Shown here in pieces: positions 1,243-21,200 of a stretch of 64,000 bases of DNA. The DNA is from Candidatus Poribacteria bacterium (GTDB lineage: Bacteria > Poribacteria > WGA-4E > JAJDTR01). A model generated the notes under the pieces. The model made no database searches. It was not told the DNA's origin and saw only the letters and a list, made by a program, of their open reading frames with translations. Both the position numbers and the translations under genes were made by a program. The DNA is taken from the NCBI GenBank assembly GCA_965197465.1, contig OZ240209.1:3965174-4029173 (forward strand). Reading direction: 5' to 3'. Position 1 is the first letter of the stretch. Each line of letters begins with the position of its first letter.

Positions 1243-1998
1243 ATGGCAAACACAATTCGGCTTTATGAACATGGTGTGCGCGTGTTCGCGGGACGACTGT
1301 ACAACCACGATTACCTTTGGTTCTCATCCAACGAAATCAGCAAGGTTTCGATAACCCAACCCGTCCTGCACAATTACGCACTCTGTTATGCAATCTCGCA
1401 GCGCTCCTACGGGGCTTATCTCGGTTCAACGCCAAAGTATGTTGAAGATCCGGATGGTGAATTCAATGCGATGCCGCTCTACGCAACGCCGGCGCACGCG
1501 GACCATCCCGAGCACATATCGCGCACGACCATCACTTTCAATGCCGTTGATTCACGTACACTGACAACGGGTGATAGCAAAACAATGAATACCCCGAATT
1601 TGGGTAAACGAGTCTACATTGATCCTGTGTGGGAACCAATGGCGATAGAACGTCCGGAAAAAGGCTATCAATTCTACGTTTTCACATTCGACAGCTATCG
1701 CCCACTAGGGGTAACACGGCTTGGTAAGAAAGGGGCTTCAATGCGCATTCGGTGGGAAGAAGTACCTCAACCTATTGCGTTCTTCCGTGAAGGCGAACAA
1801 AGCCCAACACACCCAATTAACCCTTTGGATATCAACGGACATCTCGTCAGCTACGATCCCGTGATGATTCCGCCACATCTATTGTTTCGGACAGCAACGC
1901 TTACCGAAGATTGGTGGCTATTCTTTAGTGCCGGCAGAGCCCGGCATACCATACACCTCCCCAAACGTGTTTTGAACCGAATTGGAGGGGTATCATGA
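1243..1998 (+). CDS. cas5: Cas5-family subunit (Csc1/Cas5-like)
   Basis: 251 aa, directly after cas7, with GAGGTGA RBS at 1231-1237. Its stop overlaps the cas3' start (ATGA at 1995-1998). Size and position match Cas5. Sequence is only weakly diagnostic by eye. Confidence 0.5.
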   Translation: MANTIRLYEHGVRVFAGRLYNHDYLWFSSNEISKVSITQPVLHNYALCYAISQRSYGAYLGSTPKYVEDPDGEFNAMPLYATPAHADHPEHISRTTITFNAVDSRTLTTGDSKTMNTPNLGKRVYIDPVWEPMAIERPEKGYQFYVFTFDSYRPLGVTRLGKKGASMRIRWEEVPQPIAFFREGEQSPTHPINPLDINGHLVSYDPVMIPPHLLFRTATLTEDWWLFFSAGRARHTIHLPKRVLNRIGGVS

Positions 1999-4019
1999 GA
2001 ATCCAGGGCTACTCTTATGAACAAGTCACTGTAGAAGATGTGCAAACCCATCTTTATCCACATCAAGCCGCCATGTACAACGAATGGTCCAATCACACCG
2101 GATTCCTACTCGTGACCAAAACAGGGAGTGGCAAAACACGGGCGACAGCGTTACCCGTACTGAAAAACCATGAATCTGCTGTTTTTGTCTACCCCACAAA
2201 CGCGCTGATTCAAAATCAATCACGGGCTATTCAGCAATTGATGGATGACGAGGGAATAACATATCGGGCGCGGACGCCGGAAACAGCAAACGAAAGGGTG
2301 GGAACTGAAGAATATGAAATCGTTCAAATTAGCTCCCTGACGCTCGCAGCATTTGCAAAGGCGTGGAGAATGGGTGAAAAGCAAAAAGGGGACGCATTGA
2401 TAAAACTAATTGGTCAAGAGAAACGTAAAATTGTATTGATTAACCCCGATATTCTTTATCTTCTGTACTCTTTGCGCTACCGTGGCAGTCCAGAAGTTTT
2501 GTCACATTTTCAAGCATATAAGACCATTGTATTTGACGAATTTCATCTCTACAACGGAGTTGAACTAGCCCACGCGCTTTTCCTCATTTTTTGGGCACAA
2601 CGTATGGGTGCATTCCAACGGGTTGTGTTGCTCTCTGCCACTCCGAATGAAGAGGTCAAAACCTATCTAGATCGACTGCTCAGCCCACTTGTCATTGATG
2701 CTGATGTAACAGTCCCACAACCTATCTGTGGCGAGCGCACGGTCGCCCATGATGTAGAACTCAATGCCTTGCCGGTTGCTCGGGATGTCGTCGAAACAGC
2801 ACAATCAAAGGTCCTTGAACTTCAGAGCAAACTATACCAACTCCAAGCAGAAAACCAAGAAGCAAGCAACACAGAAGATTATGTGCCTTGTGTCGTTATC
2901 CTCAATTCGGTCGTCAACGCCATCGCGCTGGAAGACGCTCTCGTTGAGGCGGGGATACCACGTACAGAAATCGCACCAATTCGCGGGCTTTCAGCACGGA
3001 GTAGTCGAGACGTGAGAGGCAGGATGCTTGTCATCGGTACCGCGGCAATCGAAGTTGGAATCGACTTCAAAACTGACTATCTGATTTTTGAGGCGGGCAA
3101 CCACGCATCGTTCATACAGCGATTTGGACGGCTTGGAAGACATAGCATCGGACAGGCGTTCCTACTCGCTACTCCGCGTGAATGTGAAGCGGTAAAATCA
3201 CTTGGAAATGATATTTCCCGGGACGCTCTAGAGGAGGGTGTCAAAACCATCTATCCCGGACAGGATGCGAAGGGATGGTTTGTTGATACGCTTTGCGGGG
3301 CGTTTACGATACTCGCCCAAGCCGAGAACTTTCGCAGTAGGATTATCGACGATTGGTCTGCTGATGAAACGGTGAAAACTGAAATTGAAACATGGCTAGA
3401 TGCTGCTCTGACAGACTATGCAACAAAGATGCGTCTAACTCAGATGAAACGTGCTCGCTTGAAACTTCGACGTAATCCCACGTGGTTTGAACATTACAAA
3501 GCATTGGACTCATTTCGGACATCGTTACCAAGCATTGAAGTTTGGGATGCACGCGAAAAATTTGAACGCGGGCGAGAACCGTACTACACCGTAGATTTGA
3601 AAACACTTTTAACACGTACGACGGTTCACTGGTCCGAAAAGTATCAGCGAATGGAAGTGAAAAAAGGCTACGATAAATGGCATCAGGTTAATCTGCTAAA
3701 GTCGTTTGATGATGAACATGAGGATGAATGTTGTGGCATGTTTCGGACAACTGCTGATTATCCGAACGGAGAGATGCAATTCATGCAAGAAGGTCATTTG
3801 ACATCGGTCTCACATGTGATGGCAAAACAGAAGTACAAAGAACGTGTTACCGGCCATCTGTTTGTTCTCGCACCGGAAGATTTACGCTACTACTTGGACT
3901 GGCGACTAGCGTGGTTTAGATGCGGATCGCGTGGGAAATTCATCATTGCATTTGATGGGGACGCGCTTTTACTGAAAGCAATCTACGATCGAACAGTGAA
4001 AATGAGAGACGGTACGTAA
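1995..4019 (+). CDS. cas3: Cas3' superfamily-2 helicase, helicase-only with no HD nuclease domain
   Basis: Walker A TKTGSGKTRA sits near the N-terminus, so there is no room for an N-terminal HD. DExH box is VFDEFH. Motif VI is QRFGRLGR. 674 aa. Confidence 0.85.
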   Translation: MRIQGYSYEQVTVEDVQTHLYPHQAAMYNEWSNHTGFLLVTKTGSGKTRATALPVLKNHESAVFVYPTNALIQNQSRAIQQLMDDEGITYRARTPETANERVGTEEYEIVQISSLTLAAFAKAWRMGEKQKGDALIKLIGQEKRKIVLINPDILYLLYSLRYRGSPEVLSHFQAYKTIVFDEFHLYNGVELAHALFLIFWAQRMGAFQRVVLLSATPNEEVKTYLDRLLSPLVIDADVTVPQPICGERTVAHDVELNALPVARDVVETAQSKVLELQSKLYQLQAENQEASNTEDYVPCVVILNSVVNAIALEDALVEAGIPRTEIAPIRGLSARSSRDVRGRMLVIGTAAIEVGIDFKTDYLIFEAGNHASFIQRFGRLGRHSIGQAFLLATPRECEAVKSLGNDISRDALEEGVKTIYPGQDAKGWFVDTLCGAFTILAQAENFRSRIIDDWSADETVKTEIETWLDAALTDYATKMRLTQMKRARLKLRRNPTWFEHYKALDSFRTSLPSIEVWDAREKFERGREPYYTVDLKTLLTRTTVHWSEKYQRMEVKKGYDKWHQVNLLKSFDDEHEDECCGMFRTTADYPNGEMQFMQEGHLTSVSHVMAKQKYKERVTGHLFVLAPEDLRYYLDWRLAWFRCGSRGKFIIAFDGDALLLKAIYDRTVKMRDGT

Positions 4020-4558: not shown

Positions 4559-4592
4559 GTTGAACGTCCGTTACTCTTGCAGGAGGAAGAAA

Positions 4593-5696
4593 ATGAACCA
4601 ACTCACCATCTCCGACTACGGCACATCTCTCGGCAAACGCTCGGAGCGCGTCAGCGTGCGATACCGCGGGGTGGAGCGGGAGAAGGAGGAGCACGCCCTC
4701 ATGGATCTGGATCAGATTGTCATCGCTTCGCGCGGGGTTAGTCTGTCGTCGGATTTGATTGAGGCGTGCACCGAACGCGGGATCGAAATCTCGTTTCTCA
4801 GCTTCAGCGGCAAACCGTATGCGAAACTCAACAGCCCTTCGTTGACGGCGACGGTCATTTCTCGGCGCGAGCAACTCGCCGCGTACCACGATGAGCGCGG
4901 GGTAGAGATTGCCAAACGGTTCGCGGCGGGTAAGTTACGGAATCAGATAAACCTGGTACGCTATTTCGGCAAGTACCGCAAGAAAAGCGCACCCAAGAGA
5001 TACGATGAACTGACGGAGCGGGTTACCAAGATTGAGGGACTGATGGACGATATTCAGGCTCTCCAAGCGCCAAACGTTGAATGGAACGGAGAATCGCCGA
5101 TTGATGCCGTCCGTACCACCTTGCTCAACTTAGAGGGCCGCGCCGGGGCGCTCTACTGGGAGTGCGTGCAACGGCTGCTGCCCGCCGGGCGATTCACGAC
5201 GCGGAATCATCAGGGCGCGACGGATGATGTCAACGCACTGCTCAACTACGGCTACGGGATGCTCTACTCTCAGGTCTGGAGCGCGCTCGGGCTGGCTGGA
5301 CTGGAACCGTTTGCGGGTTTTCTGCACGTCGATCGCCCGGGCAAACCGTCGCTGGTGTTGGATTTTATCGAGGAGTTCCGTCAGCCGATTGTTGACCGGG
5401 TCGTGTTTGCGATGATTAACAAGAAATTCAAGGTCGAGTGGGAGGAGCCGGATGACGACGCCGCCAAATCCGCGCACCAGTCCGCAAACGCGGAGGCAGA
5501 CGTGGGTACGCAACGCTATCTGAGCAAAAGCACGCGGCGCGCGTTTGCCGATCGGGTGCTGGAGCGCCTTCAGGAGACGGAGCGGTTCGAACGCAAAGAC
5601 CAGAAGTTGTGCAACATCATCCAGATTCAAGCGCGTCATCTGGCGATGTTCCTGCGCCGCGAACGGGATTATCAGCCATTTGTCTCTAGTTGGTGA
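4593..5696 (+). CDS. cas1: Cas1 integrase
   Basis: Cas1 hallmark NALLNYGYGMLYSQVWSALGLAGLEPFAGFLH...SLVLDFIEEFRQPIVD. AGGAGGA RBS at 4581-4587. The ATG at 4593 is preferred over the upstream start in the track. Confidence 0.9.
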   Translation: MNQLTISDYGTSLGKRSERVSVRYRGVEREKEEHALMDLDQIVIASRGVSLSSDLIEACTERGIEISFLSFSGKPYAKLNSPSLTATVISRREQLAAYHDERGVEIAKRFAAGKLRNQINLVRYFGKYRKKSAPKRYDELTERVTKIEGLMDDIQALQAPNVEWNGESPIDAVRTTLLNLEGRAGALYWECVQRLLPAGRFTTRNHQGATDDVNALLNYGYGMLYSQVWSALGLAGLEPFAGFLHVDRPGKPSLVLDFIEEFRQPIVDRVVFAMINKKFKVEWEEPDDDAAKSAHQSANAEADVGTQRYLSKSTRRAFADRVLERLQETERFERKDQKLCNIIQIQARHLAMFLRRERDYQPFVSSW

Positions 5697-5773
5697 ATTG
5701 ACATGCACACCTACGTCATTTACCTTCAAACGCCCGTAGGAGGGGCATCTTGCCCCGAGTTTCCACAATTGAC

Positions 5774-6025
5774 ATGCACACATACGTGATTTACGACATC
5801 GTCGAAGACCGAATCCGCAAGAAGATCGCCGATGTCTGCCTCGACTACGGCTTGAAGCGCATCCAATACAGCGCCTACTTGGGGGATATCAACACCACGC
5901 GGCGGCGGGCGTTGGATGCAAAACTAACGCAGGAATTTGGCGAAGCGGAGGGAAAGATTGAAGTCCTCTCCGTGTGTGCGAAAGATTTCGACCAACGCAC
6001 CATTATCGGGGATGCTGAAAGATGA
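5774..6025 (+). CDS. cas2: Cas2
   Basis: 83 aa. MHTYVIYDIVEDRIRKKIADVCLDYGLKRIQYSAYL matches the Cas2 N-terminal beta1-alpha1 pattern. Its stop overlaps the cas4 ATG (ATGA). Confidence 0.75.
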   Translation: MHTYVIYDIVEDRIRKKIADVCLDYGLKRIQYSAYLGDINTTRRRALDAKLTQEFGEAEGKIEVLSVCAKDFDQRTIIGDAER

Positions 6026-6594
6026 ATATACGGGTCAGCGACATCAAACAGTACTTCTACTGTCCGCGGGTGGTCTACCACACCTACTTCACGCCGGTGC
6101 ACCGTCCGACGACGCACCCGATGCAGCTCGGCGCTGTTGAACACGAAGTGTTAAGTGTCCTTGAACGCCGTCGAACCCTTGCCCGCTACGGACTTGAGGC
6201 TGGCAGTCGCAAGTTCCATGTCTCACTCCACGCCCCGGATCTCGGATTAACTGGCGTGCTCGACCTGCTTATTGAAACCGAAACTGGCGCGTTTCCCGTC
6301 GAGTTCAAGAGCACGAGACAACGGCTGGACCTGAACGCAAAGTGCCAGTTGACAGCATACGCGATGATGGTGGAGGAGTGCCTGGGTGTCGCCGTGACTC
6401 AAGGGTTTATCTACCGGATTCCCACGGAACGAATCACGCCGGTAACGATTTCAGAGTCGCTCCGCGAGAAAACGCGGAACGCTCTCCGGGACATCCGACG
6501 AATGTTGTCGGACGAGTGGATGCCTCCGCCGACTCCGCAGCGCGGGAAATGCGTCGAATGCGAATTTCGGCGATTCTGCGCGGATGTGTTGTGA
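6022..6594 (+). CDS. cas4: Cas4 RecB-like nuclease with a 4-Cys Fe-S cluster
   Basis: N-terminal YCPRVVYH Cys plus C-terminal C-x2-C-x5-C (CVECEFRRFC). Nuclease motif LDLLIETETGAFPVEFKST (D-x-E-x-K). It is adjacent to the array leader. Confidence 0.85.
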   Translation: MNIRVSDIKQYFYCPRVVYHTYFTPVHRPTTHPMQLGAVEHEVLSVLERRRTLARYGLEAGSRKFHVSLHAPDLGLTGVLDLLIETETGAFPVEFKSTRQRLDLNAKCQLTAYAMMVEECLGVAVTQGFIYRIPTERITPVTISESLREKTRNALRDIRRMLSDEWMPPPTPQRGKCVECEFRRFCADVL

Positions 6595-7011: not shown

Positions 7012-10000
7012 GTAGCAGTGAGTGCCGCGATGAAAAGCGGACTGAAAGCGCTCCACTGTCTCACCCCTCCGAAACCTCAACCAGTAGCAGTGAGTGCCGC
7101 GATGAAAAGCGGACTGAAAGCCTATGTACCCACCGCCACATAACGTAGTCCTCGCGTAGCAGTGAGTGCCGCGATGAAAAGCGGACTGAAAGCCGTCTCT
7201 CGGTTCATTAAATCTTCGGCATGGGTCAGTAGCAGTGAGTGCCGCGATGAAAAGCGGACTGAAAGTCACTAACAAGTCTTCGTTGAAACAACCGTTGAGA
7301 GTAGCAGTGAGTGCCGCGATGAAAAGCGGACTGAAAGAACTCACCGAAACACGGGACATCTATGTTGAAGTTGTAGCAGTGAGTGCCGCGATGAAAAGCG
7401 GACTGAAAGAGATGTCACGTCTGGTATGGACGTGGGAATGATATAGTAGCAGTGAGTGCCGCGATGAAAAGCGGACTGAAAGCGGACGCATTTCGTGCAT
7501 TCGTACAACAACGTCATGTAGCAGTGAGTGCCGCGATGAAAAGCGGACTGAAAGACGCCCACCGACCTCGCCGTTGAGATTAGCCAGAAAGTAGCAGTGA
7601 GTGCCGCGATGAAAAGCGGACTGAAAGTTAACCAGAACCGCCTAGGCGACGCCCGCGCAGAGTAGCAGTGAGTGCCGCGATGAAAAGCGGACTGAAAGTC
7701 CGAGCAACGACACACCGGACACTCAAATCCTATTGTAGCAGTGAGTGCCGCGATGAAAAGCGGACTGAAAGAGAAAACGATAATCATTACAACATCGCCG
7801 TTTTTAGTAGCAGTGAGTGCCGCGATGAAAAGCGGACTGAAAGAGTTTTCAAAAGCAATTAACTCCACATCCAGCGGCCTAGTAGCAGTGAGTGCCGCGA
7901 TGAAAAGCGGACTGAAAGTCTGACCGAACCGCAGCGCAACCTGTTTCGGACTGTAGCAGTGAGTGCCGCGATGAAAAGCGGACTGAAAGTGGCGCATGTT
8001 GAAAGCCGGCTACCGAACACGATTACGTAGCAGTGAGTGCCGCGATGAAAAGCGGACTGAAAGGTTGGCGTCCATACCGCCCATAATAGCCCCAATCTAA
8101 GTAGCAGTGAGTGCCGCGATGAAAAGCGGACTGAAAGCGCCCAGCGCTTCGGCGTCCACACCGGTTTGCAGTAGTAGCAGTGAGTGCCGCGATGAAAAGC
8201 GGACTGAAAGTCCGTGCCCCCGGCTGACCATGACACACCGGCGGCGTAGCAGTGAGTGCCGCGATGAAAAGCGGACTGAAAGGAGGATAAATCGAAACTG
8301 GAGGATAAGGCATATAAAGTAGCAGTGAGTGCCGCGATGAAAAGCGGACTGAAAGGCGCGCGCCGCCAAAACAGTGCCGCTGCGTTAATGTAGCAGTGAG
8401 TGCCGCGATGAAAAGCGGACTGAAAGGCTATACCAACTGATCCGCAGTTGGTTGAATCAGGGTAGCAGTGAGTGCCGCGATGAAAAGCGGACTGAAAGCG
8501 TCTACATGGATATCGGCAAGGATTACACGGGTTGTAGCAGTGAGTGCCGCGATGAAAAGCGGACTGAAAGCTAGGCTGTTGAACCCGTTCTTTTCCTCTC
8601 CACCGTAGCAGTGAGTGCCGCGATGAAAAGCGGACTGAAAGATCAACCAATCGACACTGACCGCCATCTACAGCGCGGGTAGCAGTGAGTGCCGCGATGA
8701 AAAGCGGACTGAAAGATTTCCGCGCGAGACGCCTTCATCTCTTTCAGCACTGTAGCAGTGAGTGCCGCGATGAAAAGCGGACTGAAAGCTTCTATGCTTG
8801 TCGTATAACCGTTTCCGTAGCTATGGTAGCAGTGAGTGCCGCGATGAAAAGCGGACTGAAAGCCCTCCGGGTCGTCCGGGTCGGCAATGCCGCCGTAGTA
8901 GCAGTGAGTGCCGCGATGAAAAGCGGACTGAAAGACTCGCCAGTGTGTTCATGCGGCAATCCAAGGCATGGTAGCAGTGAGTGCCGCGATGAAAAGCGGA
9001 CTGAAAGCCGTCTATAGATTAGCGAGCAGCTCCTCGAGGAAACGACCGGTAGCAGTGAGTGCCGCGATGAAAAGCGGACTGAAAGTTCTACAACACGAGT
9101 CCTGACACTTCGCTGATTTGCGTAGCAGTGAGTGCCGCGATGAAAAGCGGACTGAAAGACCCCGTCGGGGGGATTCACCGAGACGCGTTACGCGGAGTAG
9201 CAGTGAGTGCCGCGATGAAAAGCGGACTGAAAGGCGGTCACGCGCATTCAGATATGTTCTCACTTCGGTGTAGCAGTGAGTGCCGCGATGAAAAGCGGAC
9301 TGAAAGGCGTGTTGAATCCACTGTCAATCCCGATGCCGGAGTAGCAGTGAGTGCCGCGATGAAAAGCGGACTGAAAGATGCAGCTTGGGCATGTGCAGAC
9401 CCAGGAGTTCAGGTAGCAGTGAGTGCCGCGATGAAAAGCGGACTGAAAGACGAATACAGTATACAGGAGAGGGGCTTCAAGCACGTGTAGCAGTGAGTGC
9501 CGCGATGAAAAGCGGACTGAAAGCCGAGCTAGTTACAGTTGCCGATCAGATGAGTGCCATGTAGCAGTGAGTGCCGCGATGAAAAGCGGACTGAAAGCCT
9601 AAATGTCACACCCTCAGAAGTTTGTCTTGGTAGGTAGCAGTGAGTGCCGCGATGAAAAGCGGACTGAAAGTCCATCATCGTAGCCTTTAACCGATACTAC
9701 CCCGCTGTAGCAGTGAGTGCCGCGATGAAAAGCGGACTGAAAGTAATTCCTGTATGTCTTGATTCATTCTATCTCCCTAGTAGCAGTGAGTGCCGCGATG
9801 AAAAGCGGACTGAAAGTGCTACGAATATCATGTGCTATTCCTTTGGCATTTAGTAGCAGTGAGTGCCGCGATGAAAAGCGGACTGAAAGTAAAGTATATG
9901 TGAACATACCGCCTACATACATTGTAGCAGTGAGTGCCGCGATGAAAAGCGGACTGAAAGGTCGAAGTGCGCTGGGGAGTCATCGCCAAGTTTACCGTAG

Positions 10001-10844
10001 CAGTGAGTGCCGCGATGAAAAGCGGACTGAAAGGTAGGCAAAGTACCTGTGGTAACAGTGTAAGCCGAAGTAGCAGTGAGTGCCGCGATGAAAAGCGGAC
10101 TGAAAGCACGCCCATTCCTTGCTTGAAGCGCACTTGTCTTGGGTAGCAGTGAGTGCCGCGATGAAAAGCGGACTGAAAGAGTTATGACGCCGCTTGAAAC
10201 GGACACTGGCATGGTGTAGCAGTGAGTGCCGCGATGAAAAGCGGACTGAAAGTTTGTTACAAACTTACTAGACGATTTATGATGGTCTATGTAGCAGTGA
10301 GTGCCGCGATGAAAAGCGGACTGAAAGACAATCGCACGAAGTAACACGGCTTTAGTTTGTCGTAGCAGTGAGTGCCGCGATGAAAAGCGGACTGAAAGGT
10401 TTTCTTGTAATGAGAATTGGGGTAGATTTCAGAGTAGCAGTGAGTGCCGCGATGAAAAGCGGACTGAAAGATGTGGCACGAGTTTATATTCATGCAGACC
10501 GGACGGATGGTAGCAGTGAGTGCCGCGATGAAAAGCGGACTGAAAGATGTGGCACGAGTTTATATTCATGCAGACCGGACGGATGGTAGCAGTGAGTGCC
10601 GCGATGAAAAGCGGACTGAAAGTCTATGTACAAAATCTGGGCACGAGTGCATAACCAGTAGCAGTGAGTGCCGCGATGAAAAGCGGACTGAAAGATGTGG
10701 CACGAGTTTATATTCATGCAGACCGGACGGATGGTAGCAGTGAGTGCCGCGATGAAAAGCGGACTGAAAGGATAAGCGGCAAAACGGTGAACATCAATGA
10801 GGGCAGGGTAGCAACCATTGCCCCGATGAAAAGGATCAAGGGAG
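7012..10844 (+). CRISPR. CRISPR array of 52 identical 37-nt repeats plus one degenerate terminal repeat at 10808-10844. Spacers are 34-41 nt.
   Basis: All repeat starts were enumerated by hand, from the first at 7012 to the last at 10734. The repeat contains a CCGC/GCGG stem with GATGAAAA loop and an ACTGAAAG 3' handle, like Cas6-processed I-D/III-type repeats. Spacers at 10471-10509, 10547-10585 and 10695-10733 are identical. Confidence 0.97.
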
Positions 10845-10959
10845 CGGATAGCGACTGCGATAGCTAGTACAGCGGCGTTGTTTAGGGGCTTGGCATGTAA
10901 CGCTCATACCACTGGCCAAAAGCATCAAGCGAAACGGCAGTCGCCAGCTGGAGGACTCT

Positions 10960-11024
10960 CTATGGGAACTCTATCGCACTCCCTATCCGTTCGTTTGATC
11001 CCCGATGAAAAGGGGACTGAAATC
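10960..11024 (+). repeat. Orphan degenerate CRISPR repeat CCCGATGAAAAGGGGACTGAAATC fused to an inverted GATCAA/GCGATAG-type module
   Basis: 11001-11024 matches the 3' two-thirds of the array repeat with a few substitutions. It is preceded by CTATCGCACTCCCTATCCGTTCGTTTGATC. Confidence 0.6.
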
Positions 11025-11215
11025 TCAAACACAGTTGGGCATCGATAAGCGCGGTGGGTATGTTACCGCCTATAAAAAGGACGCAACACTCGGTGTTTTC
11101 ATGTATATTGATGAACATGGCGGGGATATCGGCGCCTTTGCCAATGACCAAGAACGTGTGAAATAACGACTGACTGTCACACTTGTGACAGTCAGACTAC
11201 CCATAAGGAGATTGC

Positions 11216-14020
11216 ATGCGAACAATACGAATACTACTCACCATATTCCTTCTTGCCCCCCTCCCCGTCTTCGCCGCTATCACAGTCGTCGACGACCAGT
11301 TGCACGTCGACACGGCAGCCTACACCGTTCTATTCGACCGCGGCACCATCACTCAACTCCATAACAAGCGCACCGGCGAAACCCACACTCTCGCCCCCGG
11401 CGCCAACCCGAATCCGGGGTTTAGTAAGCAGACTGCCATCGTAGGCCGGGGTAATATCAAAGATTGGTCGCCCCGTTGGGATGCCGACATACAGATAAAC
11501 AAAATTACTGACCACCACGCTGACATTGTATTTCGAAAGGGCGGGAACGCGATAACACTGTCAATCGGCATCGACCCCGCCAACAACGACCTGCTTATCG
11601 GAGGACAGGCTGTATCCGCGATACCCGGCGTTATTGGTATCCAATGGTCTGTCGAAAACCTTGATCTCCATAACCTTAGCCTCATCATCCCATCTCAAGG
11701 GATACAACAAATCGACGCCTCCTCCGCTATCGAACACCGCAACTTTCCATATCCCGACACATTCCGCTGGGAAGCGCAGCTTGCTATTATAGAATCCCAA
11801 CTCGGCGGGTTCTACGTCCGAGGCACCGATACAACCTTCCGATTCAAAGAACTAAATTATCAGCGCGACGATACCAGTTTCGGGCTCGTGTTCAAAACCA
11901 TAAATCAAGCGCCGTGGGATAGCCTCACATCAGCCAAGTCCGTCACCTGGCGCCTCAATACCTACGTTGGAGAGTGGTGCGTTCCCGCTCAAATACACCG
12001 CGACTGGATGGAACAGGCGTTTAACCCCTGGCGTCTTAGCGACGTACCGGCGTGGGTCAGTGATATCGGCTTGGTCGTTTTCCTCACGAAACTGGATACG
12101 GAACAGCTGAACGCGGTGGAAGCCTTGGCACAGCACGTTGAACCGACGCAAACGCTTTTCTATCTGACAGATTGGCGCAAATACGAGAACGATATCATGC
12201 ACCCGGATTTTACCGCCATTCACCATAATTTTGAAACGTTTCTCGAGGTCGCTCGGCGGTACGGATACCGGATTATGCTGCACGTTAACCTTCATAACTG
12301 CTCGCCGACCCATCCGCTCTATGCGGAATTCAAGCAATACCAAATACGACATCCCAACGGCGAACTGTCCGGCTGGAGATGGGACGATATTGATCATCCG
12401 GACCGGAATGCGCACATCAGTCTCGGCAGTTCGCGTTGGCGCAACCTGCTTATCCGACAATTCAAGGCGCTAAGGGACAAATACGCCATAGACGCCTTTC
12501 ATCTTGATGTGAGCCACTACATCGTCAACGACGGCAACGGTTTGGTCGAAGGTCTTACCAGCGCCGAAGCGAGCGTGCTGATGCACCGGCAGTTGATGGA
12601 AGCCATGCCGGGCGTGGTGCTTGCCGGTGAACACCTCCACGAAGTCACGTTTTTCCGCGAAAGTATCGCACAACGCAATTTATCGGAGCATGCCACACAC
12701 CCGCTCAGCGCCTTCCTCTTTGCCCCGTACACCCGGTTTATGGGGCATCTTGGATTTCCGCGTGAACACAATCCCCAGCGCCTCCGATACGCGATCCAAT
12801 TTTACGAACGTCAAGGTACTCTACCGACCGCGCGAATATCGAACGAAAGCCTATTACACCAACCGATCACCCGGGACATACTCGCTGTTGCACGCCAGTG
12901 GCAAGCGTTGAAGTTGACGCCTGATATCCACTGCCATTGGTGCGAAAATACCCTATTCCAATATACCACGGACAACGGCGAGAGTGTGACCTACCAAAAG
13001 GTCGACGGCGTATATTCACTCAATATACCCGACGGTAACGGATACCGGCGAGTGCATGGCGTCACCCAAGCCGCTACCCGGTGGAGCCTCCCCGAATGGC
13101 GCGCGTACAATGAAGAGATGCTTCTCGGTCTGGATCCGAACAAATACTATTCGCTCCGCAATGCGCCGCGCGATGTCTCCCAATTACACATTAACGCGCT
13201 TTCCCCGGGTGTTTACGTGGCAGAGACCCGCGTAACACCGCAAGCCGCCGTCTTTCGACTCGAGTCGACCTCCGGGGTTAGAGACACCTCTGTAGATATG
13301 TTCCTTCCAATGCCGCCGCTTGCAAGTGTTCCAAAGACACTTGTCTCCGTAGCCGGCAATCACTACCGTATCGACACAAATCTATCCCGACCTATCGTAA
13401 TCATACTCGCCGCGCCGCGCATTCGCCTGCCCTATAATTTAAGAGACTATCCGTTTATCGCCGGATTGCAACAGAGCGGTATCTTCCGAGTCGGAAGCCA
13501 CCACGGATCCGGCGAACGTATGACAGCGACCCTTGATGGTATCCATAAAGAGACCATCTTTGCCCACCCGCCTAAAACTGACAAAACAATTCTCCAATTC
13601 GTGTTTACGCTGCCCGAATCGCCGTCAACCCTTTCATACTCGATGGGGTTAGCCGGAGAACACAGCAAGGGCGTTCTGTTTGAAATCCGCCTTAACGGCC
13701 AGACGCACGTTAACTTCTTGAAGGATACCTTCGACTGGACGGACGGCAGTATCTCGCTTGACGAATTTGCGGGCGAACCCGTACTATTGGAATTTGTGAC
13801 AGACCCTGGGGACAGCTCGGACTACGATTGGGCGCATTGGGGGGATTTGATCATTACCGCTGACACGAATCCAGCCGATGTAAACGGGGACGGCATTGTC
13901 AACATCCTCGATTTGACGCTTGTGGCTCAAGCGTTCGGAATGAGTAGTGCGGCGGCTGACGTGAACGGTGACGGCGTCGTGAACGTTTTCGATTTGGTTT
14001 TTGTGGCGAACGCTTTTTAG
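11216..14020 (+). CDS. Secreted 934-aa putative glycoside-hydrolase-like protein with a C-terminal type-I dockerin
   Basis: Signal peptide ILLTIFLLAPLPVFAA. The C-terminus has two dockerin repeats DVNGDGIVNILDLTLVAQAFG / DVNGDGVVNVFDLVFVANAF. AAGGAGA RBS. Confidence 0.7.
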   Translation: MRTIRILLTIFLLAPLPVFAAITVVDDQLHVDTAAYTVLFDRGTITQLHNKRTGETHTLAPGANPNPGFSKQTAIVGRGNIKDWSPRWDADIQINKITDHHADIVFRKGGNAITLSIGIDPANNDLLIGGQAVSAIPGVIGIQWSVENLDLHNLSLIIPSQGIQQIDASSAIEHRNFPYPDTFRWEAQLAIIESQLGGFYVRGTDTTFRFKELNYQRDDTSFGLVFKTINQAPWDSLTSAKSVTWRLNTYVGEWCVPAQIHRDWMEQAFNPWRLSDVPAWVSDIGLVVFLTKLDTEQLNAVEALAQHVEPTQTLFYLTDWRKYENDIMHPDFTAIHHNFETFLEVARRYGYRIMLHVNLHNCSPTHPLYAEFKQYQIRHPNGELSGWRWDDIDHPDRNAHISLGSSRWRNLLIRQFKALRDKYAIDAFHLDVSHYIVNDGNGLVEGLTSAEASVLMHRQLMEAMPGVVLAGEHLHEVTFFRESIAQRNLSEHATHPLSAFLFAPYTRFMGHLGFPREHNPQRLRYAIQFYERQGTLPTARISNESLLHQPITRDILAVARQWQALKLTPDIHCHWCENTLFQYTTDNGESVTYQKVDGVYSLNIPDGNGYRRVHGVTQAATRWSLPEWRAYNEEMLLGLDPNKYYSLRNAPRDVSQLHINALSPGVYVAETRVTPQAAVFRLESTSGVRDTSVDMFLPMPPLASVPKTLVSVAGNHYRIDTNLSRPIVIILAAPRIRLPYNLRDYPFIAGLQQSGIFRVGSHHGSGERMTATLDGIHKETIFAHPPKTDKTILQFVFTLPESPSTLSYSMGLAGEHSKGVLFEIRLNGQTHVNFLKDTFDWTDGSISLDEFAGEPVLLEFVTDPGDSSDYDWAHWGDLIITADTNPADVNGDGIVNILDLTLVAQAFGMSSAAADVNGDGVVNVFDLVFVANAF

Positions 14021-14078
14021 CTTTCCGTTTGGCTATGTCTAGCGGGCCTTCGTGTATGAAGAACATGATGATAACAAA

Positions 14079-14166
14079 GTAGCAACCGACGCCGCGATGA
14101 AAAGCGATCAACTGAGATCAAATGAGCGAATAACGATCAGGCGAATGAAAAATGAGCGCGATAGCA
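14079..14166 (+). repeat. Orphan degenerate CRISPR repeat GTAGCAACCGACGCCGCGATGAAAAGCG followed by GATCAA/GCGATAG modules
   Basis: It shares GTAGCAACC with the array's terminal degenerate repeat (10808) and GCCGCGATGAAAAGCG with the consensus repeat. Confidence 0.6.
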
Positions 14167-14223
14167 TGCCTTCCGCCAATAAAACAGGAACCGAATCCTA
14201 TGCAAAATTTGCGGTAATTTTGA

Positions 14224-14252
14224 TTGACAACTTCACGCATGTATAGTATGAT
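14224..14252 (+). promoter_or_regulatory. Sigma70-like promoter TTGACA-N17-TATGAT with no annotated gene downstream
   Basis: -35 at 14224-14229 and -10 at 14247-14252. The next credible gene (gdhA) is 1.3 kb away. The only ORFs in between look non-coding. Confidence 0.3.
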
Positions 14253-14825
14253 AATGCCGATGCCGCGAAGCCGATTGGTAACAGCCGCGCACTTGTTCCT
14301 TCTCGCATTCAACCGCCGAGAGGGAAATCCCATGTTACGTGTACATTGCGTTCACCCGCGAAACCTCTAAATCTCTGCTGCCAATGGCTTCCACGGTTAC
14401 TGGAGAAGTCAATACGCCTTCAGAGCGTTGCGCTGGGACCCCAATCCGGTCACCCTTGCATGCAGTTATTTGGCGTGTAAATAGGAAAAAAACACGGAGT
14501 AAAATGCCGAATCAGTTTCTAATTCGTCTGCCCTGTTTAACTGTTCTTGCGCCTTTTCGGCGCCGGTTTTGTCTGCAAATGAGTGAATCTCGGCGGCGTC
14601 TGGTCGGTGCGCCCGCCGCGTTTTTGGCAGTAGTTTCAGCGTTGCGGAGAAGGGGGTCAGCGTTATATTCGCAGAAAATCGCAGTGTTTCGCTCGCTCAA
14701 TCACGAGCCGAAATCATGCACGGAGCCAAGCTGTGACACGCTTCCACGCTATTTTTGACTCGCAGCGCATTGACTGCGATTCGAATTCACCAGACCGCTG
14801 TAGGATCAAGCGGCCGTTCTAAGAA

Positions 14826-15114
14826 ATTAAGTAACTGTTTAGTTCAATTTATGAAGGTGCTAAAAGGGCGTCCCATCAGGACAATTGCACATAATTCTAA
14901 AGATGTAGAGATTTTCTCTGCGATTACCAGATTACCAATTTTCCCTCTTCTCTTTGCACGATTATCAAAAGCCCCAGCGGGGCGGCAGGTGTATAGAAAC
15001 GTGAATTCACTACACAGCAAAGCCCCAGAGGGGCGACAGGTGCATATAACTTCACATGACCGAAAGTGCCTTTCCCTCCTATTATTCAAACAGGCTCTAA
15101 ACAGTTACGAAATT
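14826..15114. mobile_element. 289-bp MITE-like element bounded by 18-bp imperfect terminal inverted repeats AATTAAGTAACTGTTTAG / CTAAACAGTTACGAAATT
   Basis: 16 of 18 bases match between the TIRs. The interior holds two copies, 51 bp apart, of AAAGCCCCAG(C/A)GGGGCG(G/A)CAGGTG(T/C)ATA, each a GCCCC-loop-GGGGC hairpin. No clear target-site duplication. Confidence 0.3.
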
Positions 15115-15581
15115 AACAATAATCAACTGACTGGAAAAGGAAGGAGCAACTGACCAATCAATCAAGTGAACAGCGAGCAGGATAAACTATCGCCTTGGGA
15201 TTTCTATCGCACTCACTATCCGCTCATTTGATCGATAGAGATTCTATGGAGTTCATTACGCGTCGGAAATTCGAATTTCTCTTACATGCGGTACACGCTA
15301 ACTTATCCCGAATCCTGGCATTCGCCTCTACCAACACCGAGGCAGCGAACACACCACGGTGAGCCCCACATATGATGCGCGAAGAAAAGCGAACTTTTTC
15401 GGAACTCGCCGATACATGCTTGAGGGCGCGTCAATACACGCTTCGACCTCAATTTTCGGCTTTACAAGCAAACTCCGCTCATTTGATCGACAGAGAATCG
15501 AGGGCGAATGAGTTCCTACAGTAGTCCAACTGCGATATACATCTTGTACCACTCCAATCAGCGATGTAAGGGAGAATCGAT

Positions 15582-16997
15582 ATGGCGCCGATGGTTCCGT
15601 TTTTTCAACAGGTCAACCTTAACTTCGATGCAGCCGCTCGGTTCACCGATCACCCGCGCGGGCTGCTTGAACAGATCAAAATGTGCAATACGGTCTGTCA
15701 CATGACATTCCCTGTCAAGAGAGCTGATGGGGCTATTGAAGTCATTCACGCGTGGCGTGCGGAACACAGTCATCACAAACTGCCGACAAAAGGGGGAATC
15801 CGTTACAGTACATTGGTCAATGAGGACGAAGTGACGGCGCTCGCCGCCCTGATGACATACAAATGCGCCATCGTCGATGTGCCGTTCGGCGGGGCGAAAG
15901 GTGGCGTCCAGGTCGACATCAGGAAGTATTCCACCGACGAATTGGAACGCATCACTCGACGCTACACGTATGAATTGGTGCAGAAGAGTTTCATTGGTCC
16001 GGGGATAGATGTTCCCGCCCCCGACTACGGTACCGGGGAACGTGAAATGGCATGGATTGCCGGCACCTATACCTCATTGAATCCGGGCAAGTTGGACGCC
16101 TTAGCGTGTGTGACCGGAAAACCGCTTGAGCAGAGCGGGATTCGCGGACGGAGAGCGGCAACCGGCAGAGGCGTGTATTTCGGCATCCGCGAAGCGTGCA
16201 GTTTCTCGGAAGATATGAAAACGCTTGGGCTTACGCCGGGTCTGCAGGGAAAACGGGTGGCGGTTCAAGGATTTGGCGACGTCGGGTACCACGCCGCCAA
16301 ATTCTTGAGTGAAGGCGGGGCGGTGATTGTGGGATTGGCAGACATTGGCGGCGCAATCTACAATCCGAAAGGGTTGGATGTCGAGGAGGTTTTTCAGCAT
16401 CGAGGCGAAAATGGTGCCCTTCTCAATCTTCCGGGCGCGACCAATCTCCCAAACCCCGCCCATGTCCTCGAACTGGAATGTGACATCCTCGTACCGGCGG
16501 CGCTTGAAAATCAAATCACCCGCGAGAACGCCTCCCGAATCAAAGCCAAGATTATTGCGGAAGCCGCAAATGGCCCAACGACCCCCCAAGCTGACGACAT
16601 CCTCAAGGCAAAAGGGGTGATGGTTATTCCCGATGTGTATCTGAATGCCGGCGGCGTTACGCTCTCCTATTTTGAATGGTTAAAGAACCTCTCGCATGTG
16701 CGATTCGGCCGGCTGGAAAGTCGATTTGAGGAAAATACGCACAGAAATCTTTTGGAGGCAATGGAAAGCGTGTCGGGGGTGCGGTTCTCAGAATCAGAAC
16801 AGGAACGATTGGCGCATGGCGCCACTGAGGAAGATTTGGTGGATGCGGCGCTTGAGGAAACCATGGTGACCGCATACCACGAAATTAGAACGGAATCAAA
16901 AGCGCTCGGACAAAAAGCCCGATTAAGAACCGCAGCGTTCGTCATCGCTATCAATAAGGTGGCTCGGTCTTATATGCAATCCGGAATCTTCCCGTAA
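15582..16997 (+). CDS. gdhA: Glutamate dehydrogenase (Glu/Leu/Phe/Val dehydrogenase family)
   Basis: KGGIRYSTLVNEDEVTALAALMTYKCAIVDVPFGGAKGG and a Rossmann GFGDVG motif. AAGGGAGA RBS. Confidence 0.85.
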   Translation: MAPMVPFFQQVNLNFDAAARFTDHPRGLLEQIKMCNTVCHMTFPVKRADGAIEVIHAWRAEHSHHKLPTKGGIRYSTLVNEDEVTALAALMTYKCAIVDVPFGGAKGGVQVDIRKYSTDELERITRRYTYELVQKSFIGPGIDVPAPDYGTGEREMAWIAGTYTSLNPGKLDALACVTGKPLEQSGIRGRRAATGRGVYFGIREACSFSEDMKTLGLTPGLQGKRVAVQGFGDVGYHAAKFLSEGGAVIVGLADIGGAIYNPKGLDVEEVFQHRGENGALLNLPGATNLPNPAHVLELECDILVPAALENQITRENASRIKAKIIAEAANGPTTPQADDILKAKGVMVIPDVYLNAGGVTLSYFEWLKNLSHVRFGRLESRFEENTHRNLLEAMESVSGVRFSESEQERLAHGATEEDLVDAALEETMVTAYHEIRTESKALGQKARLRTAAFVIAINKVARSYMQSGIFP

Positions 16998-17063
16998 GAA
17001 GGTCGCCCCGATTTCATCGTAGTAGCTTCTCTATTCGGTTTTCACAAGGAAAGGTTTATCGCT

Positions 17064-17798
17064 GTGCGAGATTATGGTGATTTTGTCCGAAGATTACAGG
17101 GGTTGAGTTTGCCCAATTTACAGCAAGATACGCTTGGCGAGGTCGATGGCTACACTATCTATCGTCTGCAGTTCGGGGCCGCCTCTCGTGTGAAGCGGCA
17201 GGTCTTGATAACCGCCGGCCTCCATGGAGATGAGCCGGCCGGGCCCGAAGCGGTTCTGCGGTTCTTGCACGAATACGACGCAACACGCTATGACGACTTC
17301 AGATTTCTCGTCCTTCCTTGCATCAATCCGTACGGCTATGTCCACAATACGCGCGAAAACAGGACGGAAATAGACCTCAACCGTGTGTTTGAAGCCGACA
17401 ATCCGCCAGAGGAAGCTCGTCTCGTCAAAACTGCGGTCGAGGGCAAACGATTCGATTTCGCAATAGATTTTCACGAGGATTGGGAAGCCGCCGGATTTTA
17501 CTTCTATGAGGGACGCAAAAGTGAGAACTGGATTGGGCCGGAGATCATCCGGAACGTCGAAAGCGTTGGCCCAATCGACCGGGAGAACGATGAAAACGAC
17601 TTGCCGATTGCCGATGGTGTGTTTAAGGTCGATCCCGGCTGGGGGCGACAAGGGTTTACCCCCTACCTGCTCGCTTTTCACTCCCACCACGTGATGATTT
17701 GCGAGACACCTATGAGTTGGCCCATGCACCAGCGCACCGCGGCTCACCTGAAGGCACTGGAGACGGTGTTGGCTCATTACGATCAACTGAGCGGATAG
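17064..17798 (+). CDS. Succinylglutamate desuccinylase/aspartoacylase (M14-like zinc hydrolase) family protein
   Basis: ITAGLHGDEPAGPEAVLRFL zinc-ligand region typical of the AstE/AspA family. Confidence 0.55.
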   Translation: MRDYGDFVRRLQGLSLPNLQQDTLGEVDGYTIYRLQFGAASRVKRQVLITAGLHGDEPAGPEAVLRFLHEYDATRYDDFRFLVLPCINPYGYVHNTRENRTEIDLNRVFEADNPPEEARLVKTAVEGKRFDFAIDFHEDWEAAGFYFYEGRKSENWIGPEIIRNVESVGPIDRENDENDLPIADGVFKVDPGWGRQGFTPYLLAFHSHHVMICETPMSWPMHQRTAAHLKALETVLAHYDQLSG

Positions 17799-17977
17799 CG
17801 AAGGCGATAGCTAATCCCGATAGAAAATTCTTCTCACTATTCTTTCGCTTGATCGCTCGATCTATTCAGTCGTTTAATCTTTTCCAGAGGTGTTGGGTTT
17901 CACTCAAATGTCCGTACTTTCGGGCGAAATGAAATCTCGACAATCATCTTCTGTGTGTGGTTTTTCCCAGTTTTCCG

Positions 17978-18041
17978 TTCAACCCAACCTACGTGCTTGA
18001 CTGGTTTCTGCGTAGTGCGGGGCAAGATGCCCCGCACTACG
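17978..18041. repeat. Copy of the dispersed 16-mer TTCAACCCAACCTACG followed by a 13-bp-stem hairpin (CGTAGTGCGGGGC-AAGAT-GCCCCGCACTACG)
   Basis: The 16-mer recurs at 32905 (rc), 53835, 57480 (rc) and 58005. The hairpin is seen directly at 18011-18041. Confidence 0.6.
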
Positions 18042-18059
18042 AGAACAGGGAGCAGTTCG

Positions 18060-18117
18060 TGTCCCGATGAAAATGATCAAGGGAGGGAATAGCGACCAGG
18101 AATTTCTATCGGTTGAG
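18060..18117 (+). repeat. Orphan copy of the CRISPR trailer junction: CCCGATGAAAATGATCAAGGGAGGGAATAGCGAC...
   Basis: Near-identical to 10820-10866 at the array end (CCCGATGAAAAGGATCAAGGGAGCGGATAGCGAC). Confidence 0.6.
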
Positions 18118-18262
18118 ATTACAAATCGCTGGACACGATCACGGATTTATAATAAAATACAATCCCCGCTTTGCCTCATGATTTATGCGGGCAAGGACGG
18201 GCGGGAAAAATCTGCCGTTGTAATTTTAGCATTCATTGATATATCAATTGTTGAGGAGAAAT

Positions 18263-21200
18263 ATGGCGACATCCGCATTCGTGCATCTTCATAATCATAG
18301 TGAATACAGCTTGCTTGACGGCGCATGTCACATTGATGGCATCGTTGATTGGGCTGCTGAACAGAGCGTGCCTGCCGTGGCGCTGACGGATCACGGTAAC
18401 ATGTTCGGCGCGTGGGAGTTCTACAAGAAGGCGAAGGATAAAGGGGTCAATCCCATCGTGGGTTGCGAGGCTTACGTTGCCCCGCAGAGCCGACACGAGC
18501 GCGGACGAGAACAGGGGAGCGCCTATCACCTGACGCTGCTTGCGGAAGATGCCACCGGCTATCGCAACCTTATGAAGTTGGTTTCAATCGGTTATCTGGA
18601 AGGGTTTTATTCTAAACCTCGAATCGATATGGAAATCCTACGCGAACACCGTGATGGCATCATCGCATTGACAGGGTGCATCCAGGGGTATGTCCCGGCG
18701 CTATTGGCATCTAACCAGCGCGAAGCGGCAATGAAGAACTTTCAACTGCTGCAAGACGTTATGGGGCGTGATAATCTGTACGTCGAGGTTCAGAATCACG
18801 GCATTGCTGAGGAGAAAAGCGCTTACAAAGTGATGATGCAACTTGCTCAAGAGCACGGTCTGCCGATCGTTGGGACGAACGACTGCCACTACCTTAACAG
18901 GTCGGATCACAGGATGCACGATGTGTTGCTTTGTATTCAGATGAAACGCACGGTGGATGAGGAAAATCGCATGCGCTTCCTCAACGAATTCTATTTTAAG
19001 AATATTGATGAGATGCACGAAGCACTAAAGGATTTTCCGCCCGAAGCAATTACGAATACGCTCGAAATTGCCAATCGTTGCCAGCTAGAGCTCGACTACG
19101 GCGAACATATCATGCCGAAATACGAAGTTCCCGAGGGTTTCACGGCGGATTCGTATCTCGCCAAGCTCTGCGCGGAGGCGCTCCGGGAGAAGTATGGTGA
19201 AATCTCGACGGAGATGAGTAAACGACTCGACACTGAGCTTGAAGTCATACAGAAGACAGGGTACGCCGGTTATTTGCTGATTGTGTGGGATTATGTCAAC
19301 TTTGCCCGAAGGCAGAAAATTCCCTTCGTTGGTCGTGGATCGGCAGGTGGAAGTTTGGCGATGTTCGCGCTTGGCGTGACGACCTTCAATCCGTTAGACT
19401 ATGATTGCCTGTTTGAGCGATTCCTAAACCTTGAACGAGTCACCATGCCTGATATTGACATCGACTTCGGAGATGAACACAGGAAAATTGTTATCGACTA
19501 TCTAACGGAGAGATACGGTTCGGAGTGCGTCGGGCAGGTGGCAACCTTCAGCACCTTCGCTGCAAAAGCCGCCGTTACCGATGTCGGACGCGCGCTCAGT
19601 ATGGAGATGCAAGACGTGCGCCGAGTGACACAGCAAATTCCAGTCGTTCCGGGCGTCACGTTAGACGAGTCATTGGCGGACGTTCCGCGATTCCGAGAGC
19701 TTGCTGAAGCGCCGGAAAACCGGGATATGATGGCGGTTGCCAAATCGATCGAGGGAATGAAGCGGCATGTCTCCATTCACGCCTGCGGGATTGTATTGGC
19801 AAACGGTCCGCTTACCGACTATGTTCCACTTTTCAAAGACAAGAACGACCGTGTTGCAACACAGTACAATCTCAAGACTCTTGAAGATGTTGGCATGGTG
19901 AAATTTGACTTCCTCGGCCTGCGAACCCTAAGTGAAGTCCACCACTGTCTCGCGCAGGTTAAGGAGCGGCACGGGGGTGAGCTTACGCTTGAAACCATTC
20001 CACTTGATGACGAAAAGACGTATCAGGTCATCAGTGCAGGTTTGGTCGCCGGGCTCTTCCAGTTAGAAACCTCGCCGGGCATGCGGCGCGTCACGATGCA
20101 AATCAAACCCAACAACTTCGAGGATTTCGTCCCCATTTCTGCGCTTTACCGTCCGGGGCCCCTTGATAGCGGCATGATGGACAAGTTCATTCGCCGAAAG
20201 CTTAAGGTTGAAGCCGTGACTTATCTTCACCCGACACTGGAAGATGCCCTGAAAAACACCTACGGCGTCTGTATTTACCAAGAGCAGGTAATGCAAATTG
20301 CGCGGGATATGGCGGGCTTTACGCTTGGGGAAGCGGACGTTCTGCGCGATGCGATGGGCAAGAAGAAAATGGACGTGCTCAAAATGCAGCGCCAGAAATT
20401 CATTGAAGGCGCCCGAAATAATGGAATTGACAAGCAAAAGGCGGGCGAGGTTTTCGACTATCTCGAACCGTTCGGCCGATACGCCTTTAACCGCTCGCAC
20501 ACCGTTGCTTATGCGATTATGTCTTATCAGACGGCATATCTCAAAACGCACTATCCGCGTGAATTCATGGCGTCGATGATGAGCGGGGAGTCGGGTTCCA
20601 GTGAGAAGATTGTGAAATATATCGCCGAGTGCCGACAGCTATCGGAATTTCTGGACATAAAAATGGACGTTCTTCCGCCAGACGTGAATAGCAGCGGTTG
20701 GGACTTTACCGTTGATGGAGAAGACATCCGATTCGGATTGGCTGCTGTCAAGAATGTCAACGAAGGGGCGATTGAGTCTATAGTCAAGACTCGTGAAAAA
20801 GATGGCTCATTCACATCGCTGCAAGATTTCTGCGAGCGCGTCGATGCGAAGGCGGTCAGTAAACGGGTGATTGAAAGCCTTATAATGGCGGGAGCATTTG
20901 ATTCATTTGAAGAAGGACACCGAGCGCAGCACTTTGCCAACTTGGAACAGGTGATGCAGGTGGCGCAGTCTGCGCAAGCGGATCGTGAGAAGGGGCAGAT
21001 GAATCTTTTTGGCGCCGCGGAGCAGGAACTGCCGGTTACCGAGCCTGTTCTTGATGAAGTATCGGAGTGGGAACATAATGAGGTGCTCAAGAACGAGAAG
21101 GAGCAGCTCGGTTTTTATCTTTCGGGGCATCCGTTGGAAGCGTACGATGATGTCCTTGACAATTTTACAACCGCAACGTCGCAAACCCTTGCCGAGAATC

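Follow-up and report, generated by a model that had tools for sequence, protein, structure and literature searches.

How do pieces of a CRISPR (short palindromic repeats that are clustered and regularly interspaced) repeat come to lie singly up to 7 kb beyond the array that they resemble? The question is raised by a 64,000-nt stretch of contig OZ240209.1 of a Candidatus Poribacteria bacterium (positions 3,965,174 to 4,029,173 of the forward strand; hereafter the window, whose own numbering is used throughout), in which a type I-D array is followed by repeat-like fragments. A first-pass annotation had listed four such fragments, near 10808, 11001, 14079 and 18063, each joined to modules of a dispersed GATC-rich element family. 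All four are present at those positions with the sequences given, and they are real derivatives of the array repeat attached to members of that family. What the earlier reading overlooked is that the pieces at 10808 and 11001 belong to one repeat, split by an inserted element, and that the piece at 14079 is the displaced terminal repeat of the array. The window was compared with the related loci L001, L011, L028 and L049-L059, among which the nine long-read contigs L049-L057 encode a Cas4 identical to that of the window; L058 and L059 are two further species, reached via M14 homologues. The assignment to Candidatus Poribacteria is borne out by related contigs and by a genome scan.

Repeats at the trailer end of the array

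The array and the features that directly follow it are listed here.

7012-10770, + strand: CRISPR array, 52 identical 37-nt repeats GTAGCAGTGAGTGCCGCGATGAAAAGCGGACTGAAAG with spacers of 34-41 nt
10808-10833, + strand: copy A, the 5' part (nt 1-26) of the split repeat, one 37-nt spacer past the last intact repeat
10834-11000, + strand: GATC-rich element of 167 bp with terminal inverted repeats and a type-1 core, inserted in the repeat after nt 26
11001-11012, + strand: duplicated nt 15-26 of the repeat, CCCGATGAAAAG
11013-11023, + strand: 3' part of the split repeat, GGGACTGAAAT

Folded, the array repeat has a 4-bp stem (CCGC/GCGG) that closes an 8-nt loop, with the usual 8-nt handle behind it. 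Copy A is in register with the array, being preceded by a 37-nt spacer (10771-10807), and stops at nt 26, where the element begins. The element has 31-nt inverted ends that are 84% complementary, and copies 96-99% identical to it occupy the same place in L051, L052 and L055. A perfect 14-nt direct repeat, CCCCGATGAAAAGG, lies on both of its sides and is a duplication of the hairpin loop; its length is best given as 12-14 nt, 12 being unambiguous and the outer C and G being assignable to the GATC ends of the element. Removal of the element together with one copy of the duplication yields GTAGCAACCATTGCCCCGATGAAAAGGGGACTGAAAT. This sequence agrees with the main sister-strain repeat at 36/37 positions, and its stem has changed from CCGC/GCGG to CCCC/GGGG in compensatory fashion. 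A single repeat thus has one half at 10808-10833 and the other at 11013-11023. At the right junction, where positions 11000-11023 differ from the last 24 nt of the repeat by three mismatches, the last C of the element takes the place of C14, and 11001-11023 rebuilds the repeat hairpin (CCCC/GGGG) with its 8-nt handle; the predicted Cas6 site therefore survives there.

Further downstream, the remaining fragments and the block that separates them are arranged as follows.

11024-14078, + strand: block of 3,055 bp exactly in spacer position, with a truncated open reading frame (ORF) tail (to about 11166), a hairpin (11170-11195) and a dockerin gene
11216-14020, + strand: the 934-aa DUF6259/dockerin gene, from domain matches
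14079-14105, + strand: copy B, the 5' part (nt 1-27) of the ancestral terminal repeat of the array, with positional orthologues in L050, L051, L052, L053, L054 and L056
14106-14165, + strand: left-end modules of a GATC element abutting copy B
15187-15233, - strand: inverted element end belonging to this family, lying about 1.1 kb downstream of copy B
18049-18074, + strand: copy C, a repeat-like 26-mer, 20/26 identical to the array repeat, between an M14-like gene and dnaE
18075-18120, + strand: mini-element of 46 bp abutting copy C, with left end GATCAAGGGAGGGAATAGCGA and a degenerate right end

Compared with nt 1-26 of the array repeat, copies A (10808-10833), B (14079-14104) and C (18049-18074) show 5-6 mismatches each, and all lie on the + strand, against a chance expectation for such 26-nt matches of about 0.005 per window. 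In each case GATCAA begins 0-1 nt after the copy.

The position of copy B is explained by sister strains. In L050 its orthologue stands one spacer after an intact repeat, contiguous with the array, and in L056 a single 34-nt spacer separates the split repeat from B, with homology between the window and L056 resuming exactly at 14079. Orthologues of B close the array region in L050-L054 and L056. Because B is contiguous with the array in these strains, it is the former terminal repeat, which an element has cut short at nt 27 and which the gene block has moved away from the array in the window. The block position is filled differently elsewhere, with different leucine-rich-repeat (LRR)/dockerin genes in the L051-L055 equivalents and an ordinary 34-nt spacer in L056. 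Homology between the window and L051 begins within the 3' end of the dockerin-coding region (window position 13867). Exact-protein look-ups returned no record for the 934-aa protein, GDH or DnaE. Downstream of B, a near-consensus promoter-like site (TTGACA, 17 nt, TATGAT; 14224-14252) is conserved together with the sequence that follows it in several strains (window positions 14166-14330, with orthologues in L051, L053, L054 and L056), the ORFs there being without a Pfam match.

Copy C has another history. The first-pass annotation had seen at 18063 a second copy of the array-end junction, and this was correct, as the junction is 31/34 identical to 10822-10855 over the 12-mer (nt 15-26 of the repeat) and the start of the element; the repeat portion is, however, not limited to the 11 nt then recognized and comprises the full 26-nt 5' part, starting at 18049. 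Copy C is kept in the close strains L001 and L056. In two more distant species a gene for a periplasmic binding protein lies between the M14-like gene and dnaE, and there is no copy C. It is a lineage-specific stray paralogue of the A junction, in a repeat-rich intergenic region.

None of these junctions results from misassembly, since independent long-read assemblies carry them: that of 18049 is found in L001 and L056, that of 10808 in L051, L052 and L055, and that of 14079 in L051 and L056.

Recurrence across Poribacteria and the GATC-rich family

Another 12 Poribacteria loci, four GTDB species representatives among them, show the same interruption, with position in the repeat and duplication unchanged and with one to five tandem elements separated by the 12-mer. 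Counting as a left junction either the 5' part of the repeat or the 12-mer followed by an element start, the 13 loci hold 43 left junctions, all with an element start 0-1 nt after G26. At the 14 right junctions an element end runs into the 12-mer and then the 3' part of the repeat. With few exceptions, the split repeat lies at the trailer end. For instance, L051-L055 have one and the same spacer behind the split repeat, with all upstream spacers differing, and in L058, a different species, it is the terminal repeat that has been split like this. L049 and L050 share the same trailer sequence, beside which the terminal repeat is intact in L049, a locus without the element, and split in L050.

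Embedded elements that are complete number 28, range from 86 to 532 bp and fall into a few core types. Similar embedded cores are co-oriented relative to the repeat in 67 of 68 pairs, and in all the sequence sampled such cores were seen in array context only. The type-2 core is about 80% identical between species, and tandem runs in L052 have a period of 179 bp. Among near-identical strains, the number and type of elements at the site vary freely.

The split repeats are restricted to CRISPR loci. A junction scan of 185,579 species genomes (one per species) gave 39 matches, about the number expected by chance, of which four were in Poribacteria; each of these four genomes has one junction locus, three at a CRISPR array and one (L011) in a decayed array remnant beside cas1. 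The specific left-junction pattern had six matches in a metagenome scan, all of them chance matches in unrelated coding sequence, and none in viral contigs, which gave two uninspected matches to the looser pattern of the genome scan.

Outside arrays, the same family, with the inverted-repeat consensus GATCAAnnGAnCGGATAGnGAnnGCGATAG both inside and outside arrays, is dispersed in intergenic positions, often directly at gene ends. Its members are non-coding, 74-230 bp long, with terminal inverted repeats of roughly 30 nt and without ORFs. At least 12 further ends occur in the window (15233, 17781/17854, 21838, 22021, 27032, 31663, 33044, 38277, 41695, 57562 and 58205). A complete 74-bp member (17781-17854, + strand) overlaps the stop codon of the M14-like gene; its L001 version has about 130 bp of extra internal modules and a 20-bp outer end module. 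Elements are made up of short modules, whose number varies between strains that are 98-99% identical, and the module-level insertions and deletions that distinguish the window from L001 are flanked by short direct repeats. A target duplication of 12-14 nt is found at the CRISPR-embedded copies; none is evident at 17781-17854 or 27032, and an insertion in cas2 of sister strains has a duplication of about 33 nt. The alternative raised in the first reading, that the family as a whole carries a module derived from the CRISPR repeat, does not hold, as twelve non-array ends in the window have unrelated flanks and the junction is confined to a single locus per genome.

With regard to an autonomous partner, no transposase was found between element ends in the roughly 0.3 Mb sampled, the bracketed genes of the window encoding a PfkB kinase, ribosomal protein S1 and the like. 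Six loci (L049 9157-9492, L050 8763-9329, L052, L053, L054 and L058; not the window) possess between cas1 and cas2 a gene resembling the Y1 transposases known as REP-associated tyrosine transposases (RAYT; REP, repetitive extragenic palindrome), which matches NF047646 with 75.9 bits, below the cut-off of 80. This gene was considered as the mover of the GATC elements and rejected, as the GAAACCGAGTTTT...AAAACTCGGTTTC palindromes that flank it are a different family; the window has two of them in intergenic DNA of its cas genes, at 1187 and 4529. In L050, L051, L055, L056 and L057 (for example L055 9838-9957) the insertion in the 3' end of cas2 is a further GATC element, one-sided, about 110 bp long and with CGGTAGGTGCGATCAAG at its start. 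Its direct duplication of about 33 nt is imperfect, and it alters the Cas2 C-terminus; the empty site is seen in the window (5979-6000), L049 and L052.

Origin of the split repeat

These observations are probably best explained by an old insertion of an element resembling MITEs (miniature transposable elements with inverted repeats) into repeats at the trailer end, which was passed on by inheritance and later rearranged through recombination. One or a few members of the family would have entered the trailer-end repeats of a type I-D array long ago, between nt 26 and 27 of the 37-nt repeat, that is, at the boundary of the loop and the 3' arm of the Cas6 hairpin, with duplication of nt 15-26. 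The split repeat would have persisted across species because the trailer end of an array is never renewed. Recombination among repeat halves, duplicated 12-mers and element ends could then have amplified elements in tandem, exchanged their cores, copied the split repeat to other array positions and allowed entire gene blocks to enter between the last repeats. In the window, the outcome would be one split repeat at 10808-11023, an old terminal repeat at 14079 pushed 3 kb by the dockerin-gene block, and a stray left junction at 18049. The identity of about 80% between type-2 cores of different species fits old co-inheritance, as do the co-orientation of similar cores and their occurrence in array context only in the sequence sampled. 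The trailer spacer common to L051-L055, beside different upstream spacers, also favours this account, and the 179-bp tandem period in L052 and the module-level insertions and deletions between the window and L001 are signs of recombination. Several features weigh against this account. At least five non-homologous cores occupy the identical position, which a single insertion can accommodate only if cores are swapped by recombination; junction remnants are nested within elements (AAAAGC joined to ATCAAGCGAAACGG in the element of the window, and a degenerate repeat in type-2 cores), which suggests repeated insertions; element content varies freely at one orthologous site; and elements outside arrays have no clear target duplication, other insertions in cas operons having duplications of 28-33 nt. 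Persistence across species could also be an effect of selection, for example on an array-end terminator, and the mixed pattern of duplications would fit transposition and template switching at hairpins alike.

Repeated insertion is the core of a competing, though doubtful, explanation, active homing. A mobile, non-autonomous GATC element would be served by a trans-acting enzyme that recognizes the hairpin of the repeat and places the element behind GATGAAAAG, in one orientation and with a duplication of 12-14 nt, so that the half-repeats would be by-products of ongoing insertions. The breakpoint invariant in 43 junctions and at least five unrelated cores speaks for such an enzyme, as do the perfect duplication in the window, the nested junction remnants and the different element types in tandem runs at one orthologous site of strains with identical Cas4. 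A half element in the loop of an unrelated palindrome beside the L050 RAYT-like gene hints at a preference for hairpin loops. The orthologous terminal repeat, filled in L050 and empty in L049, points the same way but is equally explained by deletion through repeat recombination. Against homing, no transposase gene is bounded by element ends in the sequence sampled, the bracketed genes in the window being housekeeping genes, and a fixed orientation is unusual for inverted-repeat transposons. No embedded cores were seen outside arrays, the non-array copies lack 12-nt duplications, and the cores, in their divergence between species, look old. A stronger version, which we consider unlikely, is that an active, orientation-specific, non-autonomous GATC element homes to the loop of the repeat hairpin, moved by a host enzyme (such as the RAYT-like transposase in sister cas operons) or arising from hairpin-induced template switching, and that the trailer has thereby become a landing pad that captures genes (dockerin or LRR) in 'spacer' position.

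A selected function would account for the maintenance of the architecture in at least four species representatives and many strains; the split terminal repeat and the element hairpin might end or insulate array transcription, or the half-repeats or the right junction might yield regulatory RNAs that resemble CRISPR RNA (crRNA), of the CreA/CreR kind. The element region is indeed folded more stably than shuffled sequence (-102 kcal/mol, z = -3.0), the right junction has a complete Cas6 hairpin with handle, and a solo unit upstream of cas3 in L049, described below, indicates that repeat-like solos near cas promoters exist in the group. Nevertheless, the left half-repeats at 10808, 14079 and 18049 stop at nt 26/27, fold no repeat hairpin and lack the 3' stem arm and the 8-nt handle, 11001-11023 being the only fragment with both hairpin and handle. 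Since the half-repeats keep nt 1-26 only, a CreA-like role, as raised in the first-pass annotation, is unlikely, and the layout of pseudo-repeat, pseudo-spacer and pseudo-repeat is absent. That annotation had also proposed examining the sequence downstream of each solo copy for complementarity to nearby promoters. The sequences after 14105 and 18074 are element modules, and the pseudo-spacer after 11023 (11024-11059) has as its best match in the window 21/36, equal to or below that of shuffles. No Rfam family passed the gathering threshold in the window, and over 10700-18300 none reached E <= 1; promoter and terminator counts over the latter interval equal those of shuffles, and the element has no U-tract terminator. 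Element number and type are freely variable between near-identical strains, and L049 is entirely without the element. Taken together, this makes a selected function quite improbable. Judged from the sequence, the half-repeats are most likely relics and not regulators; the element hairpin might have some role where the array ends.

Junctions might also have arisen by recombination between related sequences if the element end module and the CRISPR repeat were homologous, the repeat deriving from the inverted repeat of the element or the reverse. By eye, GCGATCAAGCGACCGAATAG resembles GCGATGAAAAGCGGACTGAAAG, and some element ends start with GTAGG, the repeat with GTAGC. The best local alignment of four repeat variants with six element ends nevertheless scores 15, below the mean of 16.7 for 300 shuffles, 84% of which reach 15 or more; a common origin, which we hold to be extremely improbable, was rejected on that score.

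Comparison with known systems places the elements near, and not within, several described classes. They resemble MITEs and the REP, bacterial interspersed mosaic element (BIME) and enterobacterial repetitive intergenic consensus (ERIC) sequences in being small and non-coding, in their terminal inverted repeats (about 30 nt), in having intergenic copies by the dozen that are often at gene 3' ends, and in their strain-variable modules. They differ in that no cognate transposase or autonomous element was found in the sequence sampled, in that a target duplication was seen only inside CRISPR repeats, and in the fixed breakpoint and orientation. In REP doublet forming hairpin (REPIN)/RAYT systems the RAYT gene has on its flanks the repeats that it moves; the RAYT-like gene here is not flanked by GATC elements. 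Insertion sequences (IS) of the IS1111/IS110 group at REP or attC sites and the Tn5053 'res hunters' target hairpin sites that recur in the host; they have a recombinase of their own and are not known to make a duplication of 12-14 nt. The orientation-specific use of one position in a repeated, hairpin-forming host sequence is shared with these, but no such gene is linked to the element here. Casposons are Cas1-dependent, with inverted ends and a 14-15-bp target duplication. The likeness extends to the inverted ends, to a duplication of 14 nt if the ambiguous C and G are counted, and to the proximity of cas1; the elements are, however, under 250 bp, without a cas1 or polymerase gene, duplications elsewhere are of 28-33 nt, and there is no evidence of Cas1 involvement.

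Among CRISPR-related structures, CreTA/CreA, CreR and solitary repeat units or mini-arrays also place repeat-like sequences outside the regular array and near cas genes, but they keep the 3' part that binds Cas6/Cascade and a pseudo-spacer partly complementary to a promoter, whereas the solo pieces here consist of nt 1-26 followed by element sequence. Membership of the CreA-like, REPIN/RAYT and casposon-like groups fails in each case on a defining feature. Like degenerate terminal repeats, copy B and the split repeat at 10808-11023 are off consensus, in register and at the trailer end, where units are shared by strains with otherwise different spacers; unlike these, they were cleanly truncated or split at nt 26/27 by an element and have not decayed by point mutation, and a 3-kb gene block intervenes. 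Mobile DNA is known from arrays interrupted by IS or transposons, and an ISL3 transposase gene in L052 and an IS3-like ORF in L028 lie in or beside an array. Those interruptions are one-off and at arbitrary points, whereas one small family here occupies a single nucleotide position of the CRISPR repeat across species of the phylum. A literature search returned no report of a MITE or transposon inserted at a fixed position of the CRISPR repeat across species, nor did the literature on RAYT and CRISPR or on Poribacteria and CRISPR. If the pattern reflects targeting and not inheritance, it would constitute a new relationship between mobile DNA and CRISPR arrays. 'Orphan' or 'degenerate' repeats near arrays can be half-repeats made by a small element and need be neither regulators nor decayed units, for which array finding and mini-array annotation should allow. 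The occurrence of a full gene in spacer position, with different genes by strain, suggests that in these sponge symbionts the trailer of an array can be a hot spot of recombination.

The type I-D locus and its relatives

The window begins inside a type I-D cas operon, whose genes were assigned from Pfam and NCBIfam matches.

223-1176, + strand: csc2/cas7d
1243-1998, + strand: csc1/cas5d
1995-4019, + strand: cas3'
4560-5696, + strand: cas1
about 5780-6025, + strand: cas2
6022-6594, + strand: cas4

Within the array, one 39-nt spacer, ATGTGGCACGAGTTTATATTCATGCAGACCGGACGGATG, is present three times among the last five spacers (10471-10733), which is evidence for intra-array recombination close to the trailer. 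Outside the array, its spacers have only weak, short matches in a search for self-targeting, the best being 20/22 nt, and none is convincing. The arrays of L049-L056, despite identical Cas4, contain the repeat variants GTAGCAGTGAGTGCC..., GTAGCAACCATTGCC... and GTAGCAACCGATGCC..., with T or C at nt 20 and sometimes mixed in one array. They share almost no spacers, the only shared one found being window 8789-8825, which corresponds to L049 11101-11134.

In L049 and L050 the I-D array is directly followed by a type III module (Cas10 palm, RAMPs and Cas_NE0113), which replaces the block of dockerin gene, GDH and M14-like gene. Because this module adjoins the array, the trailer is a breakpoint of larger rearrangements as well. 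Upstream of cas3 in L049 (1296-1395), a solo 3' part of the repeat, its hairpin and handle intact, GCCCCGATGAAAAGGGGACTGAAAG, is followed after 38 nt by a degenerate hairpin, CGCGACGAAAAGCGGATTG; this is possibly a mini-array or a regulatory crRNA-like unit, and its equivalent lies outside the stretch covered by the window. Finally, at the cas1/cas2 junction of the window (5693-5790), a GTAG-headed palindrome, GTAGGAGGGGCATCTTGCCCC, has the cas2 start duplicated around it as a direct repeat of about 28 nt (AATTGACATGCACAC.TACGT.AT.TAC), and a similar perfect palindrome, at 18010-18041, adjoins copy C.

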